A stretch of DNA of 64,000 nucleotides from assembly GCA_026395955.1 (NCBI GenBank), contig JAPLXR010000004.1, positions 3,883 to 67,882 on the forward strand, in the 5' to 3' direction. The notes below the pieces were generated by a model. That model saw nothing but the letters and a program-made list of their open reading frames with translations, was not told the DNA's origin and did no database searches. This document shows positions 6,148 to 43,774 of this stretch, piece after piece. The position numbers were made by a program, and so were the translations under genes. This stretch comes from Candidatus Nomurabacteria bacterium. GTDB lineage: Bacteria; Patescibacteriota; Minisyncoccia; Phycocordibacterales; UBA9973. How positions within the stretch are numbered: the first letter of the stretch is position 1; every line of letters begins with the position of its first letter.

Positions 6148-7440
6148 ATGAATAGAATCTGGCTTATTTTGTTTGGGGACTTTCTATCCTTTTGGGTGTC
6201 TTTTTTTATACTTTTTAATATACGTTTAGGAAATGCGACACCTGCTAATATTTTAAACGTACATTTAACAACATTCTCTATATTATATATCTGCTGGACT
6301 ATAATATTTTTACTTTTTGGATTATACGAACTATCAAATATAAAGCCAACGATACTTCAAATACAACGTACTAGTTTAGCTCTATTTTTTTGTTTTTTTA
6401 TAGGAATAAGTTTATTTTATTTAGTTCCCTTCTTTGGTATCACACCTAAAACAAATTTATTATTACAAGTTATATTTTTTGGATTTATTTCTTTTATATT
6501 AAGAAGAATTATTTATAGTTTCTTTTCAAAACAAAATGTACGCAAAGCTATATTAATAGGAGAAACAAATTATATAAATGAGCTATACCAAATAATAAAT
6601 ACAAACCCTCAAATAGGATTAAAAATAATTTACAAAACAAAAGATTTACAAGAAGTACTAAAAAAATATTCTAATTTAGAAAATTCAGTTTTTATTTTTG
6701 AAAGTATAAACCAAGAAATTCCAGATAAAGAAATACTTAATTTATATAAAAATAAAGTTGAAATAATAGACATTGCTGAAGCTTATGAAAAATATTTATT
6801 TAAAATACCAATATATTACATAAATAAATCATGGGTAATAAAAAACATAAATACCAAAAAAGACTTTTTATATGATTCTGTTTCTAGATTTTTTAATATA
6901 ATATTTTCTATATTTATTTTAATAGTTACATTACCTTTTACAATAATAAGTTTAATTTTTATTTATCTTTATGATAATGGTCCAGTATTTTATAAACAAG
7001 AAAGAATAGGCTTAAATGGTAAAATATTTGAATTATATAAATTACGATCCATGGTTTTAGATTCAGAAAAAAATGGAGCTGTATGGTCAGAACAAAATGA
7101 TACACGCATTACACCTATAGGAAAAATAATAAGGAAAATTCACATAGATGAAATACCACAAATGATAAACATATTGAAGGGTGATATAGCGCTAGTAGGA
7201 CCCAGACCAGAAAGGCCAGAATTTGTTTCATCATTAGAGAAAACAATACCCTATTATAATTTGAGACATACCATCAGACCAGGTTTTACTGGTTGGGCAC
7301 AAATAAAATACAGATACGCTCGTACAGTCGAAGATACAAAAGAAAAATTCCAATATGATTTGTATTACATGAAAAATAAAAATATTTTTATTGATTTTGG
7401 TATCATACTTCGAACCATTCAAATAATATTCTTACACTAA
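6148..7440 (+). CDS. polyprenyl-phosphate sugar-phosphate transferase (bacterial sugar transferase, WbaP/WcaJ-like), initiating enzyme
   Basis: 430 aa, 4-5 N-terminal TM helices. C-terminal catalytic domain with KLRSM, DEIPQ, LKGDIALVGPRPE and GWAQI motifs. Confidence 0.85.
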   Translation: MNRIWLILFGDFLSFWVSFFILFNIRLGNATPANILNVHLTTFSILYICWTIIFLLFGLYELSNIKPTILQIQRTSLALFFCFFIGISLFYLVPFFGITPKTNLLLQVIFFGFISFILRRIIYSFFSKQNVRKAILIGETNYINELYQIINTNPQIGLKIIYKTKDLQEVLKKYSNLENSVFIFESINQEIPDKEILNLYKNKVEIIDIAEAYEKYLFKIPIYYINKSWVIKNINTKKDFLYDSVSRFFNIIFSIFILIVTLPFTIISLIFIYLYDNGPVFYKQERIGLNGKIFELYKLRSMVLDSEKNGAVWSEQNDTRITPIGKIIRKIHIDEIPQMINILKGDIALVGPRPERPEFVSSLEKTIPYYNLRHTIRPGFTGWAQIKYRYARTVEDTKEKFQYDLYYMKNKNIFIDFGIILRTIQIIFLH

Positions 7441-7444
7441 TTCT

Positions 7445-8251
7445 ATGGCAAAAATATCAATAATAATTCCAACATATAATAGTAGTAAATTTATAAGAAA
7501 CACAATTCAAAGTGTTTTAGAACAGACTTATACTGACTGGGAACTTCTGATTATAGATGATTGTTCCAAAGACGAAACAGAAGAAATAATAAAAGAATAT
7601 AAAAAAAAAGAACCTAAAATTAAATTCTACAAAACAGACAATAATTCTGGTGGTCCTGCCCTATCAAAAAATATAGGAATAAAAAATTCTAATGGTAGCT
7701 ATATCGCATTTTTAGACCATGACGATGAGTGGCATAAAGAAAAATTAGAAAAACAAATAAAATTATTTGAAAATTCAAAAGATAAAAATCTAGGGATAGT
7801 TTCAACTTTTTTAGATATAAAAGAAAAAGAAACTATAATAAAATATAGTAAAAATTACAGAAAAGATATTTTAAAATATCTAGCTAGTGGAAACTTTTTA
7901 ATGACTTCTAGCTGTATTATGGTAAAAAAAGACGTATTTGAAAAAATAGGTTTATTTGATAAAAGTCTTTCTGTTTCAGACGATTTAGACATGTGGATAC
8001 GTATAGCTAAAAATAATTACAACTTTGATTATGTACCAGAATACTTAACAACATACATATATCACAATAAAAATGCTTCTCTTATAAACAGAGAAAATTA
8101 CACAGAAACTAAATTACTATTCAAAAAACACAAAGAAATATATCTTAAATATAATATTAAAATAGTTATATTAAATTACATATTATATTTATTTCCTAAT
8201 TCAGAAAAGAAGATAAAGAAAATAATCTTAAAGATAAAAAAATGCATATAA
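7445..8251 (+). CDS. family 2 glycosyltransferase
   Basis: ISIIIPTYN...DWELLIIDDCSKDET...DHDDEW: canonical GT-A/GT2 N-terminus with DxD. Confidence 0.8.
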   Translation: MAKISIIIPTYNSSKFIRNTIQSVLEQTYTDWELLIIDDCSKDETEEIIKEYKKKEPKIKFYKTDNNSGGPALSKNIGIKNSNGSYIAFLDHDDEWHKEKLEKQIKLFENSKDKNLGIVSTFLDIKEKETIIKYSKNYRKDILKYLASGNFLMTSSCIMVKKDVFEKIGLFDKSLSVSDDLDMWIRIAKNNYNFDYVPEYLTTYIYHNKNASLINRENYTETKLLFKKHKEIYLKYNIKIVILNYILYLFPNSEKKIKKIILKIKKCI

Positions 8252-9066
8252 AATTATCAATAATAATAGTAAATTGGAATACTAAAGACATACTAAAACA
8301 GACAATCGAGTCTGTTAAAAAAGAAACGAGTTTGTTTGAATACGAAATAATTGTTATAGACAATAATTCTACAGATGATAGTGTAAATATGATTAAAACA
8401 CTATTCCCTTCTATAAAGATAATAGAAAACCAAGATAATTTTGGTTTTGGTTTTGCAAATAACCAAGGGTTAAAGATCGCCACAAGAGAATGTATTTTGT
8501 TTTTAAATAGTGACACTATTATTTTAGAAAACGCTATAGAAAAATTAGTAAGATTTTTAGATGAAAATAAGGACATAGCAATGGTCGGTCCTAAAATTTT
8601 AAATAAAGACAGAACTTTTCAATCTGCATCAAAAAGAAACTTACCGACAATAAAAAATTCATTTCAATATTTATTTTTAAATAAAAAAGAAAATAATTAT
8701 AAATTAGAAAATGAAGGAAATATTAGTGAAATAACTGAGGCTATTTCTGGGGCTTGTATGTTAGTTAGGCATTCTATATACAAAAAAATAGGAGGATTCG
8801 ATGAACAATTCTTTATGTATGCAGAAGATCTAGATTATTGTAAAAGAATATTAGATAACGGATTTAAAATATATTATTTAAGTACTGCTGAAATAATTCA
8901 CTTAGGAGGAGAAAGTACTAAAAAAAATACAGAATCTTTAAAATATTTTTATAAAACAATGTGGCTTTATTATAAAAAATACTTTTATAATAACAGAAAC
9001 TTATTTGTGAATTTTAGTATTTATATAGGCATAAAAATACTTTATTTTTATAAAAAATTATTTTAA
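8242..9066 (+). CDS. family 2 glycosyltransferase
   Basis: LSIIIVNWNTKD...YEIIVIDNNSTDDS...LNSDT. Overlaps the upstream GT2 by 10 nt, indicating an operon. Confidence 0.8.
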   Translation: MHIKLSIIIVNWNTKDILKQTIESVKKETSLFEYEIIVIDNNSTDDSVNMIKTLFPSIKIIENQDNFGFGFANNQGLKIATRECILFLNSDTIILENAIEKLVRFLDENKDIAMVGPKILNKDRTFQSASKRNLPTIKNSFQYLFLNKKENNYKLENEGNISEITEAISGACMLVRHSIYKKIGGFDEQFFMYAEDLDYCKRILDNGFKIYYLSTAEIIHLGGESTKKNTESLKYFYKTMWLYYKKYFYNNRNLFVNFSIYIGIKILYFYKKLF

Positions 9067-11745
9067 ATTAATACTAAAATCTTCTCTTTCTTTTGTGAGA
9101 TTTATATTATAATAAGTATCTTTTTCAATTACTTCTTTCCATTTATTTTCCATATAATTTCTTTCAAATAAAACTCTTTTATATTTTTCTGGATTTTTAA
9201 ATTTTAAATCTTCATCAAATCCACGACTCAATGATTCATAATGATATAAAATAGAATAAGGTGTATAAACTATTAAATAATTTTTCTGTCTTAATTTTAA
9301 ACAAAAATCTACATCATTATAAGCTATAGGTAAATTAACTTCATCGAAACCACCAACCTCCAAAAAAAGACTTTTTTTAGTCAACAAACAAGCACCAGTA
9401 ACAGCACTATAATTTCTAATAACATCTAAAAAACCAGCATAACCATGAGAATTTAAATTATATTTCTTGAATGGATGACTAGCTATACCTAAACCCAGGA
9501 CTACACCAGCATGCTGAATAGTATCATTAAAATACAATAATTTTGCACCCACAGCTCCAACTTCTTTTCTCTGTATATGTTCCAACATAGAACTAAGCCA
9601 TTCGCCTTCTATTACTTCTGTATCGTTATTTAGAAATAAAATATATTCACTCTTCACAAAATTAACAGCAAAATTATTTATAGCCGAAAAATTAAATTCT
9701 TTTTCATATTTTAAAATATTTATATTTTCAATTTTATTCAAACTTTCTAAATAAGAAGAAGTTTCTTTTTCTTTACTATTGTTATCAACTAAGATAACTT
9801 CATAATTTTTATACGAAGTTATTTCTAAAATACTAGAAACACAATTTTTTAAAACTTGTACTTCATCTCTAAATGGAATAATTATAGAAACTTTTGGATT
9901 ACCAAGGATTTCTCTTTTACCTCTATAACTACCTTTAAATTTACCATACGAGAAATCCCCCCTTATATTATTTCTCTCAAAATATTCATTTAATGCTTTT
10001 TTTGCAGCTTCATTTGCGTATGATTTTGCATTAATACTGCCTGCAGTAGAACCTACTACTTTTCTCCAATGATATAAGATTTTTGATATATGAAAAATCT
10101 TACTAGAATTTGTTTTTTCTATAAACCTCAATACCAAATCATAATCTTGTGAACCTTCAAAGCCTTTACGAAAGCCACCAATATTATCAATAATTGATTT
10201 TCGATATAAACTCAAATGACAGGTGTACATTTCTGAAAGTAATAAATCGATAGACCAGTCAGGTTTGAAAAATGGATCACTTCTCTTGCCATTTAATTCT
10301 AATTTATCTTCGTCACTATATATAAAATCTATATCTTTATTTATATTTAAAACTTTTATATTTTCATAAAAAGCATTCAGAGACAATTCATCATCATTGT
10401 CTAAGAGAGCAATAAATTCACCCGTTGCTATTTTTAAGGCTTCATTTGAAGCCAAAGAAATGTTTTTATTTTCTTTACCAAAAAGTATTTTAATCCTAGG
10501 GTCAAAATCTTCCCATTTTTTTAAGCATTTTAAAGTATCTTTATTTGTAGAAGCATCATCATATAAACATAATTCCCAATTTTCATAATATTGATTCAAA
10601 ACTGAATTAATACATTTATCCAACCATCTTGGTTCAACATTATAAACAGGAGTAATTATAGAAATTTTTGGTCTATAATTTAAATTATTAATTTCTTTTT
10701 TTATTTCAGAAATATTTAAATTTTCATTATTATAAATCCAGATATCATAATCTTTATTAGAAATATTTTTTTTTGAACGAAAAATACTTTTTAATTTTTC
10801 ATATATTTCTTTCATTTTCCAAAATTTGGAAGCTTTCATAAAAGCTATTTCTTGGTTTTTTGAATTAATTATTTTGTGAAGATTTTTATTTTCTTGTTCT
10901 TTTATTTTTAATAATTCATTTAACTTTAAATGATCAATATTACTATTTAAATTAGTATCAATAATCTTATCTATTACAACTTCTTGAACTAAAGAATTTA
11001 TTTTTTTATATTCATCAACAACTTCTTTAGCAACACCAATCTTCTTAATCTCACCATTTTCTAAAATCATAGCGCGATCACAATAACGTTCTATGCTTGC
11101 TATATCATGACTGACCAAAATAACTGTTTTACCACTTGCTTTATATTTCTCAAATTCATTTATACATTTTATTTGAAAATTAGCATCTCCTACTGCAAGA
11201 ACTTCATCCATTAAAAGGATTTCTCTATTTGCATGGATAGCCACAGAAAAAGCCAAACGAACCTGCATACCAGAAGAATATTTTTTTATTTTCTGATCTA
11301 TAAAACGTTCCAATTCTGAAAAAGCTACTATTGAATCGAATTTTTCATCTATTTCTTTTTTGCATAAACCAAGGACAGTAGCGTTTAAATATATATTATC
11401 TCGACCAGAAAGTTCTGGATTGAAACCTATACCAAGTTCTAAAAATGGAGACACTAAACCATTTATTTCCAAAAAACCATTATCTAAACTATAAACACCA
11501 GCCAATATTTTTAAAAGGGTTGATTTACCACTACCATTCCTACCGAGTATACCGAAGAACTCTCCTTTCTTAACCTCAAAAGAAACATCTTTTAATGCAT
11601 AAAAGGAGTCGTAAGTTTTTTTATTAAATAAATTAATAAAAGCACTCTTTAAGGTATTTACTCTCTCATGTGGAATAATAAATTCTTTTGAAATATTTTT
11701 TACACAAATTGCATTTTTATTTTTTTGTTCATTTTCTTTACTCAT
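9058..11745 (-). CDS. fusion protein: Wzt/TagH-like polysaccharide-export ABC ATPase + coiled-coil linker + two GT2 glycosyltransferase domains
   Basis: 895 aa. N-terminus has GRNGSGKSTLLKILAG, YSSGMQVRLAFS and LLMDEVLAVGD (ABC ATPase). Residues ~350-600 show ISIITPVYNVEPRWL...LCLYDDAST...LDNDDEL (GT2). Residues ~640-880 show VSIIIPFRDE...EVILVDNNS...LNNDTEV (second GT2). Confidence 0.8.
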   Translation of the reverse strand: MSKENEQKNKNAICVKNISKEFIIPHERVNTLKSAFINLFNKKTYDSFYALKDVSFEVKKGEFFGILGRNGSGKSTLLKILAGVYSLDNGFLEINGLVSPFLELGIGFNPELSGRDNIYLNATVLGLCKKEIDEKFDSIVAFSELERFIDQKIKKYSSGMQVRLAFSVAIHANREILLMDEVLAVGDANFQIKCINEFEKYKASGKTVILVSHDIASIERYCDRAMILENGEIKKIGVAKEVVDEYKKINSLVQEVVIDKIIDTNLNSNIDHLKLNELLKIKEQENKNLHKIINSKNQEIAFMKASKFWKMKEIYEKLKSIFRSKKNISNKDYDIWIYNNENLNISEIKKEINNLNYRPKISIITPVYNVEPRWLDKCINSVLNQYYENWELCLYDDASTNKDTLKCLKKWEDFDPRIKILFGKENKNISLASNEALKIATGEFIALLDNDDELSLNAFYENIKVLNINKDIDFIYSDEDKLELNGKRSDPFFKPDWSIDLLLSEMYTCHLSLYRKSIIDNIGGFRKGFEGSQDYDLVLRFIEKTNSSKIFHISKILYHWRKVVGSTAGSINAKSYANEAAKKALNEYFERNNIRGDFSYGKFKGSYRGKREILGNPKVSIIIPFRDEVQVLKNCVSSILEITSYKNYEVILVDNNSKEKETSSYLESLNKIENINILKYEKEFNFSAINNFAVNFVKSEYILFLNNDTEVIEGEWLSSMLEHIQRKEVGAVGAKLLYFNDTIQHAGVVLGLGIASHPFKKYNLNSHGYAGFLDVIRNYSAVTGACLLTKKSLFLEVGGFDEVNLPIAYNDVDFCLKLRQKNYLIVYTPYSILYHYESLSRGFDEDLKFKNPEKYKRVLFERNYMENKWKEVIEKDTYYNINLTKEREDFSINLK

Positions 11746-12521
11746 ATAATTTCAGCTACTTTTTTCTCATATTTTTTAAATATAAAAAATGACAAGATAA
11801 ATACAAACACAATACTAAAAAATAAAATACTAAAATTATAAAATCCAGTAAAATTATTTGATATCAAACCTTGCTTTGAAAAATGAATTATAAAAGCCAA
11901 AGGATTTAATAATAAAATTTTCTGAGCATATATTGGCATTATTGATAGTGGATATACTATTGGTGAAGCATACATCAAAATAGAAAGTAGTACTTCCCAA
12001 ATATTAGACAAGTCACGAAAGCGAACAAAGAGTGGAGCTGTAACAAAAGAAAAGGCTACGATTAAAAGGTACAAAAGTATTGAATAAATTAAAAACATTA
12101 TAATACCTAAAAAGCTAGGCATTTTATCATAAATAAAAAAGAAAAAAGTTAGAACAATTAGATTCATTCCAAAAACAAAAAGAGAGTTAATAGTAGACCC
12201 TAAAACTATCGTCCACCTAGGAACGTAAGTTTTTGTAACAAGTTGAGCTTTTAAAACCAATGACATCATGCCGGCCATAGTACCTTCGGCAAAAAACTGA
12301 AACATTAACAATGCTGTCATTAACTCTAGAGGATAGTATGGATTAGTTGAATTCCTCATTCCGAAAATATTTGAAAAAACAAAATTCAAAACTGAAAACA
12401 TTAAAAGTGGTTTGAGTATAACCCAAACGTATCCCAAAGTACTACCATGATAACGTAATTTGAAATCCGTCTTAGCTAAACGTAAAACTAATTCTCTGTA
12501 ATTTTCATGTTTTTTTATCAT
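11742..12521 (-). CDS. ABC-2 type polysaccharide export permease (Wzm/TagG-like)
   Basis: 259 aa, 6 TM helices. Directly upstream of, and overlapping, the Wzt-like ATPase gene. Confidence 0.8.
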   Translation of the reverse strand: MIKKHENYRELVLRLAKTDFKLRYHGSTLGYVWVILKPLLMFSVLNFVFSNIFGMRNSTNPYYPLELMTALLMFQFFAEGTMAGMMSLVLKAQLVTKTYVPRWTIVLGSTINSLFVFGMNLIVLTFFFFIYDKMPSFLGIIMFLIYSILLYLLIVAFSFVTAPLFVRFRDLSNIWEVLLSILMYASPIVYPLSIMPIYAQKILLLNPLAFIIHFSKQGLISNNFTGFYNFSILFFSIVFVFILSFFIFKKYEKKVAEII

Positions 12522-12535
12522 AAATAATCCTTTAA

Positions 12536-14521
12536 TTATAACATAATACCATTATTTTTCAGTCTTAAAATAACTTTATTATAATTTGCAACGTCTTTAT
12601 TTTGATTAAAATATTTTATAAAACTTTTATAAATATCTACGTTAATTGTTTCTTGGTTTTTAAAATAAGAAACACTTAAATCAAAACTTTTTTCAAAGTA
12701 ACTAAAAGACTCATCATATTTTTGTTGATACATCAAATTAAAAGCTAAACCATAATTCACGTCTGGTCTATTTGGAGAAATATTTATAATCTTTAAAAAA
12801 GAATCTTCTCCTTTTTGTAAAAATAAAGTATCTTTCAATAAATTACCTTTGATAGTATAAGCATTAGCTAAATACATTAAAGATTTTAAATTTAATTGAT
12901 CTTTTAGTGAATATTCTTCAGATGCTTTGATGGCTAAATCAAATAATTTTTTAGTTTTTTCATTTTGTATATTTCTATTATCTCCTGTAAATAAAACAAA
13001 ATCGTTTCTGATATCCATCTGTGCAACAGTAAAAGGATATAAAACAGAATTAATATTCTGCAACATTAGATTTTGACTACCATCAACACGTAAAGAATGA
13101 TATTTATGCATTTGTGCATAAGCAATCAAATCATTACTAAAATATATAAAAACTATAAACACAGTTATTATTGGTAAAAATAAAGTGGTAGCTTTTAAAT
13201 ATTTTTTATTGTCTTCAACTTTATTTTCTTTTTTATTTAAATCTACAGAAACAATAAAAGCTAGAATAATGAAAAATGATATATATGTATTGATTTGATC
13301 AAAGATAAATAAAAGATGTACAAAAAGTGCAATACCATAGAACAACAAAGCTATATTTATTAGAGAAAAATCTTTCCTTTTAAAAATATTTCTAAAACAT
13401 AAGAAATATATAGCTAAATAAGCTATTAGACCTAAAAAGCCATTCATCACTAAAACATCAAATAATTTATCATGTGCTCTATCAAATGAAACAACTTCAT
13501 AATCAAACTGTTTTATATTGAAATATCTAGCATAAGCTTGAGCAAAATTCTCTGGACCCCAACCAACTAAAAACTTTTTTAGACCATTATGTGCAGGATT
13601 TACAGCGTCTAAACTCACACCTACGTTCAATATCCTCGTTTGTAGAGTCGTATCATTCGAAGTCATAACCGCTACCCTAGAAAAACCAGGAACCTTTTGC
13701 CAGAAAACATTTGAACGAGTAACAATGAAAATAAGAGAAAAAGAGAAAATAATACCTAACAATATCAGAGAGATTCTACTTAAATTGTACTTTTTATAAG
13801 AAATACCCTTCCCTTTCAAACTACAGTAAATAAGTATCAGAATAATACCAATAGCGAGACCCAGTATTGAGCCTCTAGTGCCAGTAACAAATATACCCAA
13901 GATTGATAATAAAAATACTTTTACAGAAAAGTATTTCCATAATCTATTTTTTTCTTCACTAAACACAACCAATGAACAAAAAATAGCAAAGAGTAAATAT
14001 CCAGCTAGAAATGTCGGGTTACTAAAAAAAGACCCAGGTCTAGCTACACCATTAAAATATTGGAAAAATTCCCTTATTAACAAAAAGAAGGAAGTAAAAA
14101 GACTTATTTTGAAAAACCATAAATAATCTTCTTTTTCAAAAATTAAAACAGAAAATACGAAGAAAAAAAAGATATAAGCTAGTCCCACGAAGCCTTCTGC
14201 ACGCTCTATATTGCCCCAGAAAGCTGTGTATTTATCTACAGCAAGAAAAGTACTAATAGTATATATGAAGAAGAATACCAATACAGATACAATCAAAGGC
14301 TTCTTTGTGAGTCTTTTTATTTTTTCGACAATTTCTGTTTTAAAGATCTTATCAGTAAAAAAATTAGTTAAAAATAATATACTAATCAAAAAAATCAAAC
14401 TTCTAAAGAAAAAACTTTCCCCTGTTATGTAAGGGTAAAAAACATTATTATCTACTATAAGTGGAGTAAGTGCAGTTAAACAGAGTAAAATCTTTATTAT
14501 CTTCTTCATATTATTTATCAA
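12536..14521 (-). CDS. O-antigen ligase/polymerase-family (Wzy_C-like) polytopic membrane protein with C-terminal TPR-like domain
   Basis: 661 aa, more than 10 TM helices. Contains GTRGSILGLAIGIILILIY typical of the Wzy_C/O-antigen ligase core. The soluble C-terminal ~190 aa are helical-repeat rich. Confidence 0.55.
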   Translation of the reverse strand: MINNMKKIIKILLCLTALTPLIVDNNVFYPYITGESFFFRSLIFLISILFLTNFFTDKIFKTEIVEKIKRLTKKPLIVSVLVFFFIYTISTFLAVDKYTAFWGNIERAEGFVGLAYIFFFFVFSVLIFEKEDYLWFFKISLFTSFFLLIREFFQYFNGVARPGSFFSNPTFLAGYLLFAIFCSLVVFSEEKNRLWKYFSVKVFLLSILGIFVTGTRGSILGLAIGIILILIYCSLKGKGISYKKYNLSRISLILLGIIFSFSLIFIVTRSNVFWQKVPGFSRVAVMTSNDTTLQTRILNVGVSLDAVNPAHNGLKKFLVGWGPENFAQAYARYFNIKQFDYEVVSFDRAHDKLFDVLVMNGFLGLIAYLAIYFLCFRNIFKRKDFSLINIALLFYGIALFVHLLFIFDQINTYISFFIILAFIVSVDLNKKENKVEDNKKYLKATTLFLPIITVFIVFIYFSNDLIAYAQMHKYHSLRVDGSQNLMLQNINSVLYPFTVAQMDIRNDFVLFTGDNRNIQNEKTKKLFDLAIKASEEYSLKDQLNLKSLMYLANAYTIKGNLLKDTLFLQKGEDSFLKIINISPNRPDVNYGLAFNLMYQQKYDESFSYFEKSFDLSVSYFKNQETINVDIYKSFIKYFNQNKDVANYNKVILRLKNNGIML

Positions 14522-23967: not shown

Positions 23968-23976
23968 TAATAATAT

Positions 23977-24005
23977 TTCTAAATTAAAAACTCCCATCTG
24001 GGAGT
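23977..24005 (+). terminator. efp intrinsic terminator AAAACTCCCATCTGGGAGTTTTTAATTT
   Basis: Hairpin CTCCCA-TCT-GGGAG followed by a T-run. Confidence 0.6.
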
Positions 24006-24247
24006 TTTTAATTTGTCTAGAATATAATTCTTACATTACTTGACTTTTATATAACTATATGATAATGTGAGGACTGGTTTTGTACTTTGATAATATGTTT
24101 AAAAACATACTTTTATGTGAGTATAGGTAGCACTTTGGACGGAAAAATTCTTTCCAGTGTGCTCTCTATACTCTATTTGTATATGGCAATCGTTTGGTTA
24201 CCGCGAATATCGGGCCGGCTTAAAACAGTACAAAAAACAATAAAAGT

Positions 24248-26413
24248 ATGAAAAAAACAATGTACAATTGGCTATTAGTAGCTATCCTATTATTAACAGG
24301 ATTGAAAGTTAATGCGCAAATCGGCAATGCGAGTTTTGCTGTGAGTAAAGATAGTATTTGTTCTGGCGGTATGGTGTATGTACACAATACATCACCCGAT
24401 ACATTATTACCTGGTGTACAATTTATGTGGCAGTTGAATGGAAATGGCTCCCCTCAAAACTGGACGGGGTCTAGTGTTCCTCAAGGATTTCATCTTTGGA
24501 ATACTAACACTTACCAGATTAATTTAATGGAGTTAGATTCAAATGGAGTTTTCTTGGGTTCTTTTACAAAAGATATCCACGTATTCCCTGAACCTAACTG
24601 GCCAAATTTATCACCAAATAATCTTTCAGTTGAGTGTGGTCCTGTATTTATTACAGACAACAACAATACAAATGACATTTGGATGAATGCGGCAGGAGAC
24701 ACTCTAGGAACAGGTAGTTCAATTACATTGAACATTCCTGGATTTTACAATGTTTCAGCTATTAGTCCTTTTGGTTGTATTAATTCAAACCCTATGGGTT
24801 TCAATATACAACAAGGACAAACCTCTGTAAATATTGGATCAAATAGTATGAGCATGCCTTACAATAATGATAGCATTATCTACGGTTGCCAAGGTGACCA
24901 AGTTTTTCTTAATGCTAACATAAACTATATGTTTAATGGCGGAGGATTTGTTTGGGAAAATGGATCAAGCGCATGGAACAGAACAGTAACCCAAGCTGGG
25001 TATTATTCTTTAATCTATACCGGGGCAAGCGGTTGCAGTATTACAAAAACTGTTCATTTAATAATGAAACCAAAACCTCATCCTACAATCACAGCATCCG
25101 GACCAACAACCAGATGTGGTAATGAAAGTATTACATTCAGTGTAACACAAACATATATCGATTATACTTGGAACAATTGGAACTTTAGTAGCGGGAATCA
25201 AACCTTCATATCATGGAACTCAGGATATAACTATGTAGTAGTTACTGATACTAATGGATGCAAGGGTGTTTCAGATAGTATTTTTGTAACAGAAAATCCT
25301 GTACCACCACAAGCAACAATTACTCCAAGCGGTTGTAATTTAATTTCTGATATGCCAAATGATGGAATACATATCAATATCTGGAAAATAGATACACTTA
25401 GCACTATCATAGGAAGCACTCAAATGATTTCTCCTATGGTAAGTGGCGCCTATACAGATATGATTGTTGATGTGACAACAGGTTGTCACTCAACATCGTT
25501 ACCATACAGTTTTGTGTTACCACCTGTACCAGTAATTGTTGGAAATTTAGATATCTGCCAGGGTGACACAGCTCACCTTACAATATTTAATCCAAACCAA
25601 TACAGCCAGTTTTTCTGGTCGAATAGTGCTGATGGCCCTATCGATACAGCGACAGTATCTGGTTACATAAACGTTGAGGCTCAATACGGATCTCAGGGTG
25701 GTTGCATAGTAGTTAACCCTTATAGTGTTTATGTTACGGTACATCCAAAACCTATTGGAATAATAACTGCTAGTAACACTACTTTATGTGCCGGAGATTC
25801 AGTAACGCTTTCTGTTCCATCTGGAACAAATGACAGCTGGAGTACAGGCGAAGTTGGCTCAACAATTTACGTAACAAATGGTGGATATTACTCTGCTCTT
25901 ATGACAAATAGTTATGGATGCAGTTATGTAACACCAGCAGTTCATATAATTGAGCACGCAAAACCAAACAAACCGACAATTACCGGACCTTGTATACTAT
26001 CTACTAATAGTGGATTCTCTTCATACCAATGGTACGAATTAGACACATTATTAAACATGATACCCATTACAAGTTCTACTGGACAATTCTTGTCGATAGT
26101 TCACGTACCAAACTACTACACAGTAGGAGTTACTGACGCTAATGGATGTAGTAATACTTCCGATCCGTATTGGTCAAGTTGTGGAACAGGAATAAATGAA
26201 GAAACAAATACTATTTCTGAAGTTTATCCGAATCCGTTCACTAACCAAATCACAGTAAGATTTTCTGATAACAAAGAACATATGATAAATATGTTTGATG
26301 TTTTAGGTAAAGTTGTAATTTCTGAGAAAGGTCAAAATGAAATGACTCTGAATACAACTGAACTAAGTTCTGGAATTTACTTTATTCCGGGAATTGGAAA
26401 AATGATTAAATAG
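24248..26413 (+). CDS. secreted multi-domain adhesin-like protein with type IX secretion system (T9SS/Por) C-terminal sorting domain
   Basis: 721 aa. Signal peptide MKKTMYNWLLVAILLLTGLKVNA|QIG, with Bacteroidota-style cleavage before Gln. About ten ~60-70 aa repeats each carrying a conserved Cys (CSGG, CINSNP, CQGDQ, CSITK, CGNES, CKGVSD, CHSTS, CQGDT, CAGDS, CSYVT, CSNTSDP), resembling SprB/PKD-like Ig domains. C-terminal ~65 aa VYPNPFTNQITVRF...MFDVLGKVV...LNTTELSSGIYFIPGIGKMIK matches the T9SS CTD (Por_Secre_tail) consensus. Confidence 0.8.
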   Translation: MKKTMYNWLLVAILLLTGLKVNAQIGNASFAVSKDSICSGGMVYVHNTSPDTLLPGVQFMWQLNGNGSPQNWTGSSVPQGFHLWNTNTYQINLMELDSNGVFLGSFTKDIHVFPEPNWPNLSPNNLSVECGPVFITDNNNTNDIWMNAAGDTLGTGSSITLNIPGFYNVSAISPFGCINSNPMGFNIQQGQTSVNIGSNSMSMPYNNDSIIYGCQGDQVFLNANINYMFNGGGFVWENGSSAWNRTVTQAGYYSLIYTGASGCSITKTVHLIMKPKPHPTITASGPTTRCGNESITFSVTQTYIDYTWNNWNFSSGNQTFISWNSGYNYVVVTDTNGCKGVSDSIFVTENPVPPQATITPSGCNLISDMPNDGIHINIWKIDTLSTIIGSTQMISPMVSGAYTDMIVDVTTGCHSTSLPYSFVLPPVPVIVGNLDICQGDTAHLTIFNPNQYSQFFWSNSADGPIDTATVSGYINVEAQYGSQGGCIVVNPYSVYVTVHPKPIGIITASNTTLCAGDSVTLSVPSGTNDSWSTGEVGSTIYVTNGGYYSALMTNSYGCSYVTPAVHIIEHAKPNKPTITGPCILSTNSGFSSYQWYELDTLLNMIPITSSTGQFLSIVHVPNYYTVGVTDANGCSNTSDPYWSSCGTGINEETNTISEVYPNPFTNQITVRFSDNKEHMINMFDVLGKVVISEKGQNEMTLNTTELSSGIYFIPGIGKMIK

Positions 26414-26438
26414 AATGCAACTATAATACAAATGCAAA

Positions 26439-26472
26439 GCCCCGTTAACAAAATGTTAACGGGGCTTTTATT
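26439..26472 (+). terminator. intrinsic terminator GCCCCGTTAAC-aaaatg-GTTAACGGGGC + TTTTATTT
   Basis: 11-bp perfect stem with a T-run, 25 nt after the stop of the T9SS-CTD gene. Confidence 0.65.
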
Positions 26473-26507
26473 TGCACATTTTTCAAAAATAAATTTAATC
26501 TTGAAAA

Positions 26508-28848: not shown

Positions 28849-29856
28849 TTATTCATTATGGCTCAAATACTTATCTTCAACTCGTCTTTTTTCAGAAACA
28901 GCAATAAGCTTTTTCTGAACTCTCCTAGTGCTAAATTCAGTTTCTTTTAATAAACCTTTTCTTAAAAGAAGTTCATCACGAATGTCAGCAGATTCTTCAA
29001 ATTTTTGACTATCGTTACTTTTTTCAAGAAGAATCTTCAACTCTTCTTCTGTCATATTTTCATAATCAATTCGTTGGAAAGTATACTCAGTTGCAGTTTT
29101 AGAACACCGCATAAAAAGAGTAAGTAATCCTTTGCAATTTTTAGAATCATTAAAGTTACCAATATTAATTTTTCCTTTAACATTTCTATCAAAATACATC
29201 TTTGTATCAGCAACAAGAAAGAAAAACTTATACTCACCTAACTCTACTAGAGATACCGGATTTATAATCAAAATAGAAACATTTTTATTACCAGAAATTA
29301 TTTTATATTTTAAAAACTCTAATAAATCTGACAAGTTATTTTCATCTGGATATTCAGAAAGTAATACCGTTACTTTCCCCTGTCTATTAAGAAATCCATT
29401 CAGAGCAATAATCGCTTGATTCTTAAAAAAAGAATCATTTTGAAAAACTTCAAAAATATACACATACGATATAGCAGTAGTAAAAATACAATTTAATACA
29501 TACCGAGGCTTAACATCTTCATCAATTCCAAAGCAAAAATTTTCCTTTTTAAAAGCTTTTTCTTTAAGCCAACAATACCAATATGGGTCTGTTTTTTCTG
29601 TTGTTGTTATTTTATTATTACGATAATAACTTTCGTCTGGGAAAGAACGCATAAAAGTTTCTTTAATTTCTCTTTCTACTTGTTCTTCTTTTTTATTTTG
29701 TTCAGCTAATTGAGCTATAATTTCTTTTTTAATTTTTTCTTTTAATTTTTCTTGTTTCTTTACTTCTTGTCTTTTATAAATTCTTATAGCAATCCAAAAA
29801 ACAAACGCAATAATGGTTGTCTCTATTGCTTCTTCAAGTAAAATACTTGTATTCAT
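28849..29856 (-). CDS. hypothetical membrane-anchored protein
   Basis: 335 aa. One N-terminal TM, Lys/Glu-rich coiled segment, then an uncharacterised domain with several Cys (YWYCWLKEK, FCFGID). Confidence 0.35.
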   Translation of the reverse strand: MNTSILLEEAIETTIIAFVFWIAIRIYKRQEVKKQEKLKEKIKKEIIAQLAEQNKKEEQVEREIKETFMRSFPDESYYRNNKITTTEKTDPYWYCWLKEKAFKKENFCFGIDEDVKPRYVLNCIFTTAISYVYIFEVFQNDSFFKNQAIIALNGFLNRQGKVTVLLSEYPDENNLSDLLEFLKYKIISGNKNVSILIINPVSLVELGEYKFFFLVADTKMYFDRNVKGKINIGNFNDSKNCKGLLTLFMRCSKTATEYTFQRIDYENMTEEELKILLEKSNDSQKFEESADIRDELLLRKGLLKETEFSTRRVQKKLIAVSEKRRVEDKYLSHNE

Positions 29857-29922: not shown

Positions 29923-31380
29923 TTAATCTTTTCTCAAAAATAGTGGTTGTTCTGGCATTTTTCCAGATTTTGCAATTTCTACAATTTTTTTACTGGTCTC
30001 TGGAAGTACAGGCGTGAGCATCATTCCAATGTTATGAAGCTTTATAACTAGTTCTTTTATAATCTCAACAGCTTCTTCTTTATTTGTTTTCACAAGTTTA
30101 AATGGTTGTTTTGTTTGTATTAACTCATCAAGCTCAGTAACGTGTTTAAAAACTAAATTCATGGCCTCGTGTATATTAAAATTATCCATCGCAACGATTA
30201 CTGGAGCCCAATCTTCAGTAAGAGTCATTGCTGGAATCTCAGTAATAGTTTCTAAATTTGTCTCTGCCATTTTCATAATACGACTAGTAAGATTCCCTAT
30301 TCCATTTGCAAGACCTGCATTATAAGCATCTTTAAAACGTTCCATAGTAAATGGTGAATCTTCAAACGAAGAAACTTCTTTAGCAAGGAAAAAACGAAGT
30401 GCATCAGTACCGTATTCAGATACAATATCTTTCGGATCAATGACATTACCAAGTGTTTTAGACATTTTTACTCCACCATCAGCAGTAATAAAACCATTAA
30501 TAATTATTTGATGAGAATTCGGCACATCAGCTGCCATTAGCATTGCTTGCCACATTGCAGATTGAAAACGAAGGTTGTCTTTACCACAGTATTGTGTAGG
30601 ATTTCCATTTACCCAATATTTATCAAAATCTCCACTAGCCTCTGGCCATCCAAGTGTAGATATATAATTAGTTAAAGCATCAAACCAGACATACATAACA
30701 TGCTCTTCATCCCCTGGTACTGGTATACCCCATGGCATTTTATCCTTCAAACGTGAAATAGAAAAATCTTGAAGTCCACGTTCAACGAATGCTTTGATTT
30801 CATTAAAGCGAAAATCTGGTACAACAAAATTTGGATTTTCTTTATAAAAATTTAATAATTTTTCAGTGAATGCACTATATTTGAAAAAATAGTTTTCTTC
30901 TTGAATAATTTCAAGCGCACGTCCAGGATGTATAGGACACTCATCATTTACAATTTCAGAATCACTCTTGGTTTCTTCACAGCCTACACAGTATCTAGCT
31001 TCATAATTCTTTTTGTAAATATAACCATTATCATATACTTTTTTCCAAAATGCTTGAGCAGAATTTATATGATTTTCATTAGTGGTACGAGCAAAATGTA
31101 AAATACTTTCATCCATTCCAAAGATATTAACTGAGTCTTTAAATCGAAAAAAACTATCATTAACAAACTCTTGAGGAGTCTTCCCTGCAGCAACTGCTTT
31201 CTCGTATATTTTCATTCCATGCTCATCTGTACCTGTATTAAAAAATACATCATAGCCATTTAATTTTTTATAACGAGCAATAATATCAGCACGAATAAAT
31301 TCCAGTGCATGACCCATATGGAGATCTGCATTCACATACGGAAGCGTAGTAGTAATGTAAAAACTATTTTGATTCTTCAT
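29923..31380 (-). CDS. metG: methionyl-tRNA synthetase (short form without C-terminal appended domain)
   Basis: 485 aa. HMGH (LHMGHALE) and KMSKT (KMSKTLGN) class I motifs. Zn-knuckle CVGCE...CPIH. Confidence 0.95.
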   Translation of the reverse strand: MKNQNSFYITTTLPYVNADLHMGHALEFIRADIIARYKKLNGYDVFFNTGTDEHGMKIYEKAVAAGKTPQEFVNDSFFRFKDSVNIFGMDESILHFARTTNENHINSAQAFWKKVYDNGYIYKKNYEARYCVGCEETKSDSEIVNDECPIHPGRALEIIQEENYFFKYSAFTEKLLNFYKENPNFVVPDFRFNEIKAFVERGLQDFSISRLKDKMPWGIPVPGDEEHVMYVWFDALTNYISTLGWPEASGDFDKYWVNGNPTQYCGKDNLRFQSAMWQAMLMAADVPNSHQIIINGFITADGGVKMSKTLGNVIDPKDIVSEYGTDALRFFLAKEVSSFEDSPFTMERFKDAYNAGLANGIGNLTSRIMKMAETNLETITEIPAMTLTEDWAPVIVAMDNFNIHEAMNLVFKHVTELDELIQTKQPFKLVKTNKEEAVEIIKELVIKLHNIGMMLTPVLPETSKKIVEIAKSGKMPEQPLFLRKD

Positions 31381-41356: not shown

Positions 41357-43699
41357 TTAATTTTTAATAAAATATCTCTTCATCAAGAAATACTGTAATA
41401 GTCCAAAAATAGACAAGATTACGAGTGATTCGAGTACATAGTTAATAGATGGGAAAGGAGTAGTAATATTAAAGAAGTTAATTAATACTGGAATCTTAGT
41501 CAAAATAAAAATCAAAACTATTTCAATAAAAGCTAAAATAAATAAATGAGATTTTTCTTTTCTAGTCAAAGAAGAAGAATAAACATTTGGAGCTAAAGCT
41601 AAGAATGTAAAACCAGAAACAATAAAACCTAAGATTGCTAAAGTATTAGGTTGTATATTTTTCAAATACTCTGGACTGATAAAAAATACTAGAGCGATAG
41701 AGATAGATTCAACTATCGCACAACACAAAACGAAAGGAAGTATCTGACCCAAAAATGTTTTTTCATTTGAAGGTGGAGTTTTTCTAGATGGTTGTATCGC
41801 CCAGAGACCAATAACTAATCCCGGAATCCCAACAGTAAAATAATTTATCAAAGTTATATTTAGCGGTGTGAGAGTAAAAGCATATCCAAATATTGAAATA
41901 ATTGTAAAGAAAAATAATCCGATTAAACTTTGATTTATAAAAACCCCAGCATTCATCTCTATACTACGAATAAAGTTGTCTGCGAGCTCTACAGCCCCTG
42001 GTAAGTCAGTAAAAGTACTATTCATCAAAACTACACCGGCGAGCTGACGAGTCACTGGAGCGCCATCAAACATCGCTACACCTAGGTCCGCACGTTTGAT
42101 AGCTAAAGCATCATTCACCCCATCCCCCACCATCGCAGTAAAACCGTCTTTTTTAAAAGCTTCAATAAGTTTTAATTTTTGTTCAGGTAAAATTTGAGCA
42201 AAGACAGTATAGTCGTGAACTTTCTTTTTGTAATCTTCATCAGTCCATTTTGAAACTTCGTCCCCTGAAATAACTACATCACTATTTTTTATTCCGACAG
42301 ACGTTGTAACAGCTCGCACAGTATCTACGTTATCTCCTGAAATAATTCTTATTTTTATTCCGCGATCTTGGAAGAAACTAATTGCTTCTTTTACTCCAGC
42401 ACGCAAAGTATTAATAAAGACAAAAACAGATACAACAGAAAGTTTTGTTTTTGAAAGCTCACGAGGTAAAGATGATTCTTCTGAACGCACAACGCACAAA
42501 ATTCTTTTTCCTGTATGTGCATTTTTTTGCAAAACATCTTCCAACCATTTTTTCTCAACAGGATTCACTATTTGTGGTAAAAAAACACTTGCAGTACCCA
42601 CGAATACAGTGCCTTTGCCGAGCTTATCATTTATAACTACTGCACCATATTGTCTCCAAGAAGAAAACGGTAAAGCATCATTGGCTTCACTCTCTTTTAC
42701 TTTTTCTTCTCCTATATATTTTTCTATAGCTGAAATAGTCTGAGAGGAATCACCTGATCCATTTATATATAGAGAAGTTAAATCAAAAACTACTTCTTTG
42801 GAAATACTTTCTGGCATAAAAACATCTTCAACAACGAGAATATTGTCAGTCAAAGTTCCTGTCTTGTCCATGCAAAGATTTTTTATTCTACCGAGTTTTT
42901 CTGTCGCATTTATTTCTTGGAATAAAACATTATGTTTTGAATAACTACTTGCTCCAATAGTGAAAAGCAATGTTGTAATAACCATCAAACCTTGAGGTAC
43001 GATAATACTAGCCAAGGCACCAATATGCATTACGATATTTACATACGCTTCATGAAAAAAATATCCACGAGCAATAACAAAAATAATACTAGCAATAAGT
43101 ATAAAGCCGGAATATTTTATAACCGTATTTATAGATCTCTGAATAGAGCTAGGATTCAAAGCGTACTTTTTTGCATCTTCAGTAATTCTAGAAATTCTAC
43201 TTTCTTTGAAAATATTTTCTACTTGTAAAATTGCATTACCGGAAGTAATAATACATCCGGCTACTAATTTATCATTTTCTTTTTTAGGAAAAGAATCAGA
43301 CTCCCCTGTGAGTAATGCTTCAGATATTTCTAAATTAATAGCAGAAATTAAAACACCATCACAAGGAACTTGATCACCTAATTTTAATTTTATTTTATCT
43401 CCAACGATTAATTTTTCAGCCAAAACATCTTCTTCGTTATTGTCTTTATTCAAACGTATAGCATGAAGTGCTGTTAGCATTTGTAAACGTTCGAGCATGA
43501 ACCGAGCACGAATGTCTTGGATAACACCGAGTAAAATATTTATTATGAATACTGCACCAATAAAAATAGAAGCTTGTTTGTTACCAAAAACATAAAGTAA
43601 AATAACAACAGCAAAAATAATACCGTTAACCAAGATTACAGTATTACGAAAGAGTATAGGAAGAACGCTAGGTAATACTCTTTTATATAATTCAAACAT
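41357..43699 (-). CDS. P-type cation-transporting ATPase
   Basis: TGESD (actuator), CMDKTGTLT (phosphorylation site), GDGVNDA (hinge). The annotated ORF extends to 43759 but overlaps the tRNA. The ATG at 43699 (MFELYKR...) is the likely start. Confidence 0.88.
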   Translation of the reverse strand: MFELYKRVLPSVLPILFRNTVILVNGIIFAVVILLYVFGNKQASIFIGAVFIINILLGVIQDIRARFMLERLQMLTALHAIRLNKDNNEEDVLAEKLIVGDKIKLKLGDQVPCDGVLISAINLEISEALLTGESDSFPKKENDKLVAGCIITSGNAILQVENIFKESRISRITEDAKKYALNPSSIQRSINTVIKYSGFILIASIIFVIARGYFFHEAYVNIVMHIGALASIIVPQGLMVITTLLFTIGASSYSKHNVLFQEINATEKLGRIKNLCMDKTGTLTDNILVVEDVFMPESISKEVVFDLTSLYINGSGDSSQTISAIEKYIGEEKVKESEANDALPFSSWRQYGAVVINDKLGKGTVFVGTASVFLPQIVNPVEKKWLEDVLQKNAHTGKRILCVVRSEESSLPRELSKTKLSVVSVFVFINTLRAGVKEAISFFQDRGIKIRIISGDNVDTVRAVTTSVGIKNSDVVISGDEVSKWTDEDYKKKVHDYTVFAQILPEQKLKLIEAFKKDGFTAMVGDGVNDALAIKRADLGVAMFDGAPVTRQLAGVVLMNSTFTDLPGAVELADNFIRSIEMNAGVFINQSLIGLFFFTIISIFGYAFTLTPLNITLINYFTVGIPGLVIGLWAIQPSRKTPPSNEKTFLGQILPFVLCCAIVESISIALVFFISPEYLKNIQPNTLAILGFIVSGFTFLALAPNVYSSSLTRKEKSHLFILAFIEIVLIFILTKIPVLINFFNITTPFPSINYVLESLVILSIFGLLQYFLMKRYFIKN

Positions 43700-43700
43700 G

Positions 43701-43774
43701 TCCACCCTCATGGATTCGAACCATGGACCCCAGAGGTATAAGCTCTGTGCTCTAACCAACTGAGCTAAGGGTGG
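43701..43774 (-). tRNA. tRNA, anticodon UAU (tRNA-Ile reading AUA), 74 nt, no encoded CCA
   Basis: Minus strand reads CCACCCT-TA-GCTC-AGTTGGTTA-GAGC-A-CAGAG-CTTATAC-CTCTG-GGGTC-CATGG-TTCGAAT-CCATG-AGGGTGG-A. Full cloverleaf with 7/4/5/5-bp stems, T-loop TTCGAAT, D-loop AGTTGGTTA, anticodon loop CU-UAU-AC. Unusual C1:G72. Confidence 0.75.

Follow-up and report, generated by a model that had tools for sequence, protein, structure and literature searches.

A Bacteroidota-type T9SS sorting domain protein in a strain-variable cassette of a Nomurabacteria chromosome

Between the housekeeping genes efp and rpsR, a Candidatus Nomurabacteria chromosome carries a gene for a 721-aa protein that ends in a type IX secretion (T9SS) type A C-terminal sorting domain (CTD). 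The initial annotation of the 64-kb stretch of DNA analysed here (the window) had described it as T9SS cargo of the Bacteroidota type in a CPR-like genome, and this headline proved correct. We consider it fairly probable that the protein is a horizontally acquired, Sec-exported adhesin of the GhpA/SprB/CHU class with an orphan CTD, encoded by a cassette in the Nomurabacteria efp-rpsR slot. GenBank already names this protein and the one orthologue found (MCX6752843.1 and MCX6755067.1) “T9SS type A sorting domain-containing protein”. The features of the locus are listed in Table 1.

Table 1. Features of the efp-rpsR slot and of the encoded protein (coordinates are those of the window)
Feature	Coordinates	Strand	Description	Basis
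Variable slot	23968..26507	+	efp stop to rpsR stop, holds the cassette, 2540 bp	Locus comparison
efp terminator hairpin	23981..24014	+	16-nt perfect arms	Hairpin reading
Promoter-like site	24040..24068	+	TTGACT, 17 nt, TAATGT; TG one base upstream	Direct reading and alignment
5' leader	24075..24247	+	Long, conserved, about 175-195 nt	Alignment with orthologue
ORF, T9SS-CTD protein	24248..26413	+	Encodes 721 aa	
Sec-type signal peptide	24248..24316	+	aa 1-23, predicted signal peptidase I site VNA/Q	Direct reading, model, orthologue alignment
Tandem Ig-like domains	24317..26182	+	n = 8, aa 24-645, Ig_7 / CHU_C-associated / GhpA-SprB type	
Linker	26183..26209	+	About aa 646-654, low confidence	pLDDT below 50 at aa 649-654
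T9SS type A CTD	26210..26410	+	aa about 655-721	Profile matches, fold
Terminator of the gene and rpsR	26436..26468	.	Perfect 15-bp stem, common to convergent rpsR	Conserved in orthologue

The CTD was assessed via profile searches and structure prediction. Pfam Por_Secre_tail (PF18962) matched aa 659-713 with an E-value of 3.5e-13 and 50.1 bits (cutoff 27), and NCBIfam TIGR04183 matched with 38.7 bits (cutoff 23), or 43.4 bits when the last 80 aa were used alone, which upholds the assignment that had been made from consensus residues only. The predicted fold is a seven-stranded beta-sandwich which superposes on solved T9SS CTDs, and direct reading places it at the extreme C-terminus of a protein that begins with a Sec signal peptide. 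It keeps the GxY motif (GIY) and the terminal lysines K718 and K721, and thus appears to bear all sequence hallmarks of a working signal: fold, GxY, and near-terminal Lys. Because these hallmarks are kept, a loss of its signal function is read from context. In the two CPR proteins, 13 and 15 residues separate GxY from the C-terminus, versus 19-25 (median 22) in 57 homologues, and the last beta-hairpin of both CPR CTDs is 7-9 residues shorter than in the 57 homologous CTDs. This shortening falls within the stretch from GxY to the end, i.e., the last two strands, which have been reported as those most needed for T9SS export (PMC11969387). The linker upstream of the domain corresponds in position to the place of PorU cleavage in canonical cargo (compare PMC11969387). 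Used by itself as a database query (82 aa), the CTD drew almost no candidates and no usable match. Its conservation between the two orthologues equals that of the best-conserved Ig domains. A surface anchor was sought in the protein, and no C-terminal transmembrane segment, LPXTG motif, or lipobox was found; lacking an evident anchor, it might just be released.

The signal peptide reads MKKTMYNWLLVAILLLTGLKVNA, followed by QIG, and contains a helix at residues 4-16 with low pLDDT in the AlphaFold model. The predicted cleavage site before Gln that the initial annotation had emphasized is present as VNA/QIG, while its generality did not stand, since the orthologue reads MNA/LPF there; the Gln is a relic that only one of the two has kept. 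The repeats had been counted as about ten and marked by Cys, which had to be revised to eight, seven of them with a Cys pair (130/177, 214/263, 290/338, 363/413, 437/486, 514/558, and 582/634). The Cys columns are invariant across a 30-sequence alignment. Repeats 1-3 are strongly diverged, and the Pfam Ig_7 model (PF19081) scored 22.2 bits on the protein, which is below its threshold of 27.3. The full-length model (pLDDT 81) forms a chain of eight all-beta domains, and its top PDB matches are GhpA stem fragments (9flp, E 4.7e-30).

The gene lies between recA-efp (+ strand) and rpsR-ssb-rpsF (- strand), confirming that it is wedged between convergent housekeeping operons, and the strong terminator ascribed to it was located as well. 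Its start at 24248 is backed by ATGAAAAAA, which the alignment shows to be kept in the orthologue. One gene caller starts at Met5 instead; the 717-aa call is present in the contig index, where no match to the exact 721-aa product was found. The promoter-like site corresponds to TTGACT-17-TAGTAT in the aligned orthologue and was missing from the list of a consensus scanner. The leader that follows contains a hairpin at 24119-24173, whose apical loop is longer by a 20-nt insertion in the orthologue. The leader matched no Rfam family and was not found in viral contigs, in the rest of the window, or in loci lacking the gene. Promoter and leader together are more conserved between the two orthologues than the coding sequence. 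The cassette is self-contained, with promoter, long structured leader, coding sequence, and terminator. The efp terminator hairpin resembles the single bidirectional terminator which fills the entire efp-rpsR spacer in relatives without the gene. The missing Shine-Dalgarno sequence was considered as a relic of the donor and rejected, because only 5 of the 55 window genes have one.

The Logan assembly of SRR20698640 matches the locus at 100% identity over 4568 nt in the order recA-efp-gene-rpsR, with both joins spanned, and a diverged orthologue (53% identical) occupies the same slot in a second Nomurabacteria MAG (GCA_026395995.1) and a second Logan assembly. Between these two loci the neighbouring proteins are 78-94% identical, compared with 53% for the cassette protein. 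Relatives at loci L005-L014 have a slot of 50-59 bp and no such gene, the slot is likewise empty in the outgroup loci (L009-L014), and locus L015 holds an unrelated ORF there. L002, which has the gene, was compared with L005, which lacks it: at the DNA level efp is 98.3% and rpsR 95.8% identical, homology ends exactly at the efp stop codon, and the 51-nt spacer is replaced by 2536 bp. The gene is not a fixed feature: it forms a cassette that varies from strain to strain, and the slot which holds it is flexible. The cassette borders showed no transposon-like repeats, and no transposase lies inside. An IS200-type Y1 transposase occurs in the adjoining recA-efp slot, in relatives only. Searches for further orthologues in 185,579 GTDB species genomes found just the known Lac Pavin MAG; those in JGI metagenomes gave none beyond one weak CTD-only match, and those in viral contigs gave none. 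The family is known from two MAGs and one lake. Its history of gain and loss is ambiguous, as ancestral gain with a recent deletion in the L005 lineage and cassette exchange by recombination both fit.

Divergence between the two orthologues gave a dN/dS of 0.23 overall and 0.33 for linker and CTD, at dS values near saturation (about 0.7-1.6, similar to the 0.6-1.3 of the flanking genes), and of ten segments tested, nine had pN lower than pS, among them the CTD. Purifying selection has preserved the intact gene in two species.

The CPR-like surroundings described initially were borne out in all three marks, as S5 adjoins L15 with no L30 between them in the ribosomal protein cluster, PyrH is of the archaeal type (TIGR02076, 193 bits), and a PG_binding_1 protein is encoded. 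The best EF-P matches are named Nomurabacteria, Paceibacterota, or Minisyncoccia, and the core genes are syntenic with Nomurabacteria/Paceibacterota MAGs, in line with the names in GenBank. Pfam and NCBIfam searches of the ~55 window proteins found no T9SS machinery (SprA/Sov, PorK/L/M/N, PorU/V) and no outer-membrane families, which agrees, within the 64-kb window, with the earlier claim that both are missing. T9SS is described in the literature as confined to the FCB group, and the few described CPR cells are monoderm (PMC8871954). In the literature on T9SS or sorting domains in CPR, Patescibacteria, Parcubacteria, and Nomurabacteria, no paper discussing such a case was found. The composition of the gene is only subtly different from its neighbours, as had been judged by eye: its GC3 is 0.263 (z +1.1), GC and GC3 fall inside the core-gene range, and its codon-usage likelihood is the third lowest among the 55 window genes, comparable to that of FtsK and SecY. 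Its codon usage is ameliorated.

The protein was matched by 15,291 cluster representatives, none of which outside its own cluster exceeded 40% identity. The best matches are repeat proteins of 2,000-7,000 aa, the named homologues are mostly Bacteroidota/FCB, and the best non-CPR matches are 33-40% identical. A Gln directly after the signal peptide, the Q-rule, is a Bacteroidetes trait (PMC5837995), and it is obeyed by 58 of the 72 homologues with a recognisable signal peptide, as well as by the VNA/Q site seen here. The protein contains the D(S/T)(A/I/L/V/M/T) sequon 10 times, where 2.1 would be expected, and no such enrichment was found in the native secreted proteins of the window. Both the Q-rule Gln and the sequon enrichment fit a Bacteroidota origin. 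Together with the homologues, they give good support to horizontal acquisition, one of the explanations offered at the outset; the gene would have come, not recently, from a Bacteroidota/FCB-type donor, and no particular donor can be named.

Another of those explanations, a chimeric or contaminated assembly, is excluded by the identical Logan assembly and the orthologue in the same slot, and the gene does belong to the CPR chromosome. A Bacteroidota fragment spliced into a CPR contig would account for the domain architecture and for codon usage at the edge of the window distribution, but the joins are the same in two independent assemblies of one allele, the diverged orthologue recurs in another MAG and another Logan assembly, GC and GC3 are those of core genes, and the cassette is merely 2.5 kb with CPR genes on both sides, so that this reading is almost certainly wrong. 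Hardly more probable is an organism with its own T9SS and outer membrane for which the protein is ordinary cargo. The CTD is indeed intact, conserved, and under purifying selection, and the search for T9SS genes covered 64 kb only; against this stand the typical CPR character of the window (no L30, archaeal-type PyrH, Nomurabacteria/Paceibacterota synteny), its lack of T9SS and outer-membrane families, the reported restriction of T9SS to the FCB group, the monoderm envelope of described CPR cells (PMC8871954), and the shortening of the essential last hairpin. The family might instead be native to CPR, or have moved from CPR to Bacteroidota, as could be argued from the unnamed donor and from best non-CPR matches of just 33-40% identity. 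This is very improbable given that more than 15,000 homologous clusters, dominated by giant proteins and mostly Bacteroidota where members are named, stand against a single CPR cluster, that the closest CPR relatives have empty sites, and that the protein carries the Bacteroidota-specific Q-rule Gln and O-glycosylation sequon.

Two further alternatives concern what the protein now does. The CTD could itself be the working end, binding T9SS components on the surface of a Bacteroidota host (PorV or the PorU attachment complex) and thereby tethering the epibiont to that host or exploiting its machinery. Purified CTDs bind SprA-PorV complexes in vitro with no energy input (PMC10994853), the domain is as conserved as the best Ig domains, and a Bacteroidota-derived protein is what transfer from a host would leave. 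In the solved complexes, however, the CTD sits inside the SprA pore, whose outer side is capped (PMC10994853), no host is known, nothing evident anchors the protein to its own cell, and the shortened hairpin falls within a segment that T9SS handling reportedly requires (PMC11969387), which leaves such mimicry very improbable. Slightly less so, and still unlikely, is a neutral passenger, i.e., a recently transferred cassette heading for loss whose CTD is kept by inertia. Its absence from near-identical relatives and its presence in two genomes only would agree with this, but the ORFs are intact despite about 45% amino-acid divergence, pN stays below pS in nearly all segments including the CTD, dN/dS is low overall, and promoter and leader are conserved above the coding sequence.

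We thus favour the acquired adhesin. In this explanation, the protein would be a miniature, with eight Ig-like domains, of the giant T9SS-exported Ig-repeat adhesins of the Bacteroidota GhpA/SprB/CHU class, gained by a small Nomurabacteria lineage through horizontal transfer. It would be exported via Sec with cleavage of the signal peptide and would form a disulfide-stabilised rod outside the cell, where it may act as an adhesin or host-contact protein in an episymbiotic lifestyle. With no outer membrane or T9SS, the CTD would no longer be a secretion signal and may be retained as a terminal beta-sandwich module serving stability or non-covalent surface retention or binding. Recruitment of the CTD for another purpose in a CPR cell, the third explanation offered initially, is plausible because of the purifying selection and the lineage-specific shortening.

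T9SS sorting domains are regarded as diagnostic for T9SS cargo and serve to predict secretomes, and here selection keeps one in a lineage seemingly without T9SS or outer membrane. An automated “T9SS type A sorting domain” annotation therefore need not mean that a T9SS is present. The protein offers a concrete case of a secretion signal moved into an incompatible envelope, with the fold kept and the export-critical hairpin trimmed. It is also a candidate host-contact protein of an uncultured Nomurabacteria lineage, and its likely Bacteroidota origin is a mere hint at the organisms that the lineage lives with. Were host mimicry true, an episymbiotic CPR bacterium would have turned a stolen secretion tag into a ligand for recognising its host or tethering itself to it.

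Among known systems, the domain is like the T9SS type A CTDs (PF18962 / TIGR04183) of F. johnsoniae NucA, FspA, and RemA (PDB 8glk, 8glj, and 8gl6), further examples being T. forsythia mirolase (8qb1) and P. gingivalis RgpB, PorZ, and PorU. It differs from such cargo in that the window shows no T9SS and the lineage seemingly has no outer membrane, and cleavage and attachment by PorU would not proceed as known. The type A CTD also varies naturally in length in Prevotella intermedia, whose short CTDs have lost N-terminal strands, keep the last two, and are still T9SS-functional (PMC11969387); the CPR domain is the opposite, with N-terminal strands kept and the last two shortened.

The repeats share a consensus (P.P.I...G..tfC.G.sV.L.a....Y.W..G.t...i.v...G.Y.v.vt..nGC) with Ig_7 (PF19081)/PKD repeat proteins of Cytophaga, Chitinophaga, and Flavobacteriia, and most homologues have precomputed PF19081 matches. 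The overall layout, in which Ig-like repeats with conserved Cys residues stand in tandem ahead of a T9SS CTD, is that of the Aureispira grappling-hook adhesin GhpA and the SprB-type gliding adhesins, whose role is in cell-cell contact. GhpA is a T9SS substrate built of Ig-like repeats which catches prey cells. Unlike these adhesins, the Nomurabacteria gene has no adjacent PorP/PorE-like anchor genes, and its product has eight repeats in 721 aa, whereas GhpA has 52 repeats in 5,898 aa and forms a heptamer.

The gene X, which lies between efp and rpsR and encodes a C-terminal type IX secretion system (T9SS) sorting domain (CTD), is almost certainly a real gene and not an artefact. The Logan assembly of SRR20698640 was 100% identical over 4568 nt spanning recA-efp-X-rpsR, and a 53% identical orthologue (locus L002) occupies the same site in a second Lac Pavin MAG (GCA_026395995.1) and in the Logan assembly of SRR20698644. 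The gene order after the orthologue is that of the window (rpsR-ssb-rpsF-tatD-...-metG-...-M16), and the proteins around it share 78-94% identity across the two genomes. A chimeric or contaminated assembly, one option of the initial annotation, is vanishingly unlikely, as both joins recur in a second assembly and a divergent allele sits in the same place elsewhere. The X family is known from these two MAGs, both from one lake.

Judging by its gene content, the window is a small-genome Patescibacteria (CPR) chromosome. In line with the initial description (no L30, archaeal-type PyrH, a PG-binding surface protein), S5 is followed directly by L15 without L30 between them, PyrH matches TIGR02076 (193 bits), and a PG_binding_1 surface protein is present. 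FtsK, RecA, EF-P, S18-SSB-S6, aminoacyl-tRNA synthetases, SecY, one tmRNA, and one tRNA are also encoded, and the closest EF-P homologues carry the names Nomurabacteria, Paceibacterota, or Minisyncoccia. Scanning the ~55 window proteins with Pfam and NCBIfam gave zero T9SS or outer-membrane family matches, which bears out the absence first reported for these 64 kb, and a local CTD HMM, run over every frame of the window, detected no further CTD protein.

X is, with near certainty, a strain-variable gene of foreign type that is kept by selection. Relatives' loci were retrieved via the closest EF-P homologues. The relative in L005-L008 is approximately the same organism as the orthologue MAG (EF-P and S18 100%, S6 98%, and AI-2E 99.5% identical; efp 98.3% and rpsR 95.8% DNA identity for L005), and its efp-rpsR spacer of only 51-59 nt is one bidirectional terminator. 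Homology between L005 and the orthologue locus ends exactly at the efp stop codon, with 2536 bp in place of the spacer. The site is likewise empty in a more distant group (L009-L014), and in another Nomurabacteria MAG (GCA_021413905.1, L015) it holds an unrelated, cytoplasmic-looking ORF. The window still keeps the ancestral-looking efp terminator. The cassette behind it consists of its own promoter-like site (TTGACT-17-TAATGT, TG upstream), a ~175-195-nt leader, the X coding sequence, and a terminator with perfect arms; its borders carry no transposon-like ends. Two histories are compatible with this: either the common ancestor of the window and L002/L005 lineages already had the cassette and L005 recently lost it by deletion, or recombination in the conserved flanks passes it between lineages that co-occur. 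The dS between the two X alleles (~1.6 vs 0.6-1.3 in flanking genes) speaks against the two known carriers having exchanged the cassette recently.

Coordinates of the X cassette and of other features in the window and in related loci
Feature	Window (strand)	Related loci
Low-GC surface-glycan block	6148-14521	
efp terminator	23981-24014	
X leader	24075-24247	L002 700-901
Leader hairpin	24119-24173	
X ORF, 721 aa	24248-26413 (+)	
Cassette terminator	26436-26468	
212-aa ORF in efp-rpsR slot		L015 5755-6393
recA-efp junction insert		L005 1674-2955; L009 ~6291-6848
335-aa membrane-anchored ORF	28849-29856 (-)	L002 5481-6374
MetRS	29923-31380	L002 6465-7913; L005 5976-7427
P-type ATPase ORF, mechanically called (TTG start 43759)	41357-43759	
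tRNA-Ile(TAT)	43700-43774	
1243-aa protein	46817-50551 (-)	
VirD4/TraD-like coupling ATPase, 914 aa	55382-58129 (-)	

Nearby sites vary too. The recA-efp junction of the relatives (L005-L008 and L009-L014) holds an IS200-type Y1 transposase with a 137-aa ORF, or a 185-aa ORF; recA directly neighbors efp in the window. The 335-aa ORF between tatD and metG shares the presence/absence pattern of X, being found in both Lac Pavin genomes (43% identity) and not in L005 or L009, where tatD abuts metG. MetRS is only 59-63% identical among genomes that share 96-100% identity in the flanking genes (L002 vs L005: MetRS 61%, AI-2E 99.5%), a pattern suggestive of allelic replacement or of a hot spot for recombination.

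Elsewhere in the window, a block with a GC content of 0.21-0.28 (0.31-0.40 in surrounding 1-kb windows) encodes a sugar transferase, several GT2 enzymes, an ABC-2 permease, an 895-aa fusion of an ABC-ATPase with two GT2 domains, and a Wzy_C/O-antigen-ligase-like protein. This block is a candidate surface-glycan source and may, like X, have been acquired as an island. The 1243-aa protein, without Pfam or NCBIfam match, adjoins a DUF5663 protein just downstream of the tmRNA gene. The tRNA-Ile(TAT) overlaps the called 5' end of the P-type ATPase ORF, so the true start lies further downstream. No other recognizable conjugation genes were found near the coupling ATPase.

The X leader is ~90% identical between the alleles, compared with ~74-77% DNA identity for the coding sequence, and its predicted fold is a long hairpin (z -3.85 relative to shuffled sequences) whose apical loop has a 20-nt insertion in the orthologue. 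It is present only upstream of X and has no Rfam match. Only 5 of 55 window genes have a Shine-Dalgarno-like motif and many have TATAAT 5-10 nt upstream of the start codon, which suggests leaderless or very short-leader mRNAs; a conserved hairpin leader in such a genome suggests an unknown cis-regulatory RNA.

None of the families to which X belongs is new, and the GenBank pipeline had already labeled it [quoted passage not shown] (MCX6752843.1). By reading, its N-terminus (MKK, hydrophobic core, VNA/Q) is a predicted classical Sec signal peptide; this cleavage site, proposed initially, stands for X, but the orthologue has lost its Gln. Next come eight all-beta domains in tandem, each ~72-90 aa long, seven with a Cys pair at fixed positions, so that the Cys marking was correct and the count of about ten repeats was not. 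In the full-length model (pLDDT 81), a short low-confidence linker joins the array to the C-terminal domain.

Searching all 1.84 billion cluster representatives with HMMER returned 15,291 clusters homologous to X, with E<=1e-30 for 1,131. X and its orthologue share one 50% cluster, no other representative exceeds 40% identity, and the top matches are proteins of 2,000-7,000 aa aligned by dozens of repeats. Named homologues are mostly Bacteroidota/FCB (Fluviicola, Chitinophagaceae, Ferruginibacter, Bacteroidia). The sequon D(S/T)(A/I/L/V/M/T), which we take to be a Bacteroidota O-glycosylation motif, occurs 10 times in X vs 2.1 expected (p ~0.0005; aa 35-601) and 6 times vs 2.1 in the orthologue, being in part inherent in GDSVTL of the Ig-repeat consensus; the window's native secreted proteins show no such enrichment. 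Gln after the signal-peptidase site is the Q-rule of Bacteroidota (PMC5837995), followed by X and, in a crude test, by 58 of 72 signal-peptide-bearing homologues; a native secreted window protein lacks it. Both features survive in X as Bacteroidota-specific habits and, with the named homologues, support the horizontal acquisition first offered as an option; a native CPR family, or transfer in the reverse direction, is highly improbable. The GC3 of X (0.263) and its codon-usage likelihood, within the FtsK/SecY range among window genes, agree with the subtle compositional difference noted by eye. This composition is ameliorated, which makes the transfer an old one on the scale of amelioration, with a donor that is not nameable.

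The first database search gave P0003 (L018; ENA ERZ4209337 NODE_9021; GC 38%) as the closest homologue from outside CPR. It has 1259 aa with a Laminin_G_3 domain, Ig repeats, and a Q-rule signal peptide, without a CTD. Its neighbors are a fragment of a Wzt-like ATPase, a triple-GT2 protein of 1022 aa, and another Ig-repeat protein.

Between the two alleles, dN/dS (Nei-Gojobori) is 0.23 across X and 0.33 for linker and CTD (pN 0.20 vs pS 0.46), and the CTD identity of 63% is among the highest in X. On this allele comparison the CTD is not decaying, and a cassette carried as a neutral passenger is unlikely. A deletion common to both CPR alleles affects the final beta6-beta7 hairpin, leaving 13 and 15 residues from the GxY Gly to the C-terminus vs 19-25 (median 22) in 57 other recovered CTDs; the sandwich is still closed in the model by two four-residue strands, and the near-terminal Lys is retained. 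Within the CTD, the last two strands are reported to matter most for export (PMC11969387), and conserved CTD motifs chiefly set the fold, the near-terminal Lys being the single contact of functional importance (PMC10994853). The literature searched contained no paper on T9SS sorting domains in CPR; the CPR setting and the derived CTD are new.

T9SS has been reported in the FCB group only and described CPR cells are monoderm (PMC8871954). A cell without outer membrane or T9SS cannot use the CTD as a T9SS signal, and it is therefore read as an orphan domain, which may persist because it aids folding or stability, or because it serves binding or retention. A T9SS hidden in the X-bearing organism is extremely unlikely on this lineage context and on the ~55 window proteins scanned. 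Host-directed mimicry, in which the CTD binds T9SS surface parts of a Bacteroidota host, draws on the binding of purified CTDs to SprA-PorV in vitro, but the binding site sits inside an externally capped pore (PMC10994853), and we regard it as very unlikely.

We consider it probable that X is a maintained, foreign-type, Sec-exported, adhesin-like rod with an orphan CTD; the main weakness is that X has no evident anchor to the cell. X would be exported by Sec, its signal peptide cleaved, and the chain folded in the oxidizing exterior into a rod of eight Ig-like domains. The case is a somewhat surprising and tidy example of a surface protein carried across phyla along with a secretion tag that is now orphaned. 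By analogy with GhpA and SprB, and in keeping with the episymbiotic lifestyle attributed to CPR, the rod may serve contact with other cells or surfaces. GhpA fragments are the top solved-structure matches to the full-length model (E 4.7e-30), GhpA being the T9SS-secreted Ig-repeat "grappling hook" of Aureispira prey capture (bioRxiv 10.1101/2024.01.29.577165), and X resembles GhpA and SprB in its array of Ig-like repeats.
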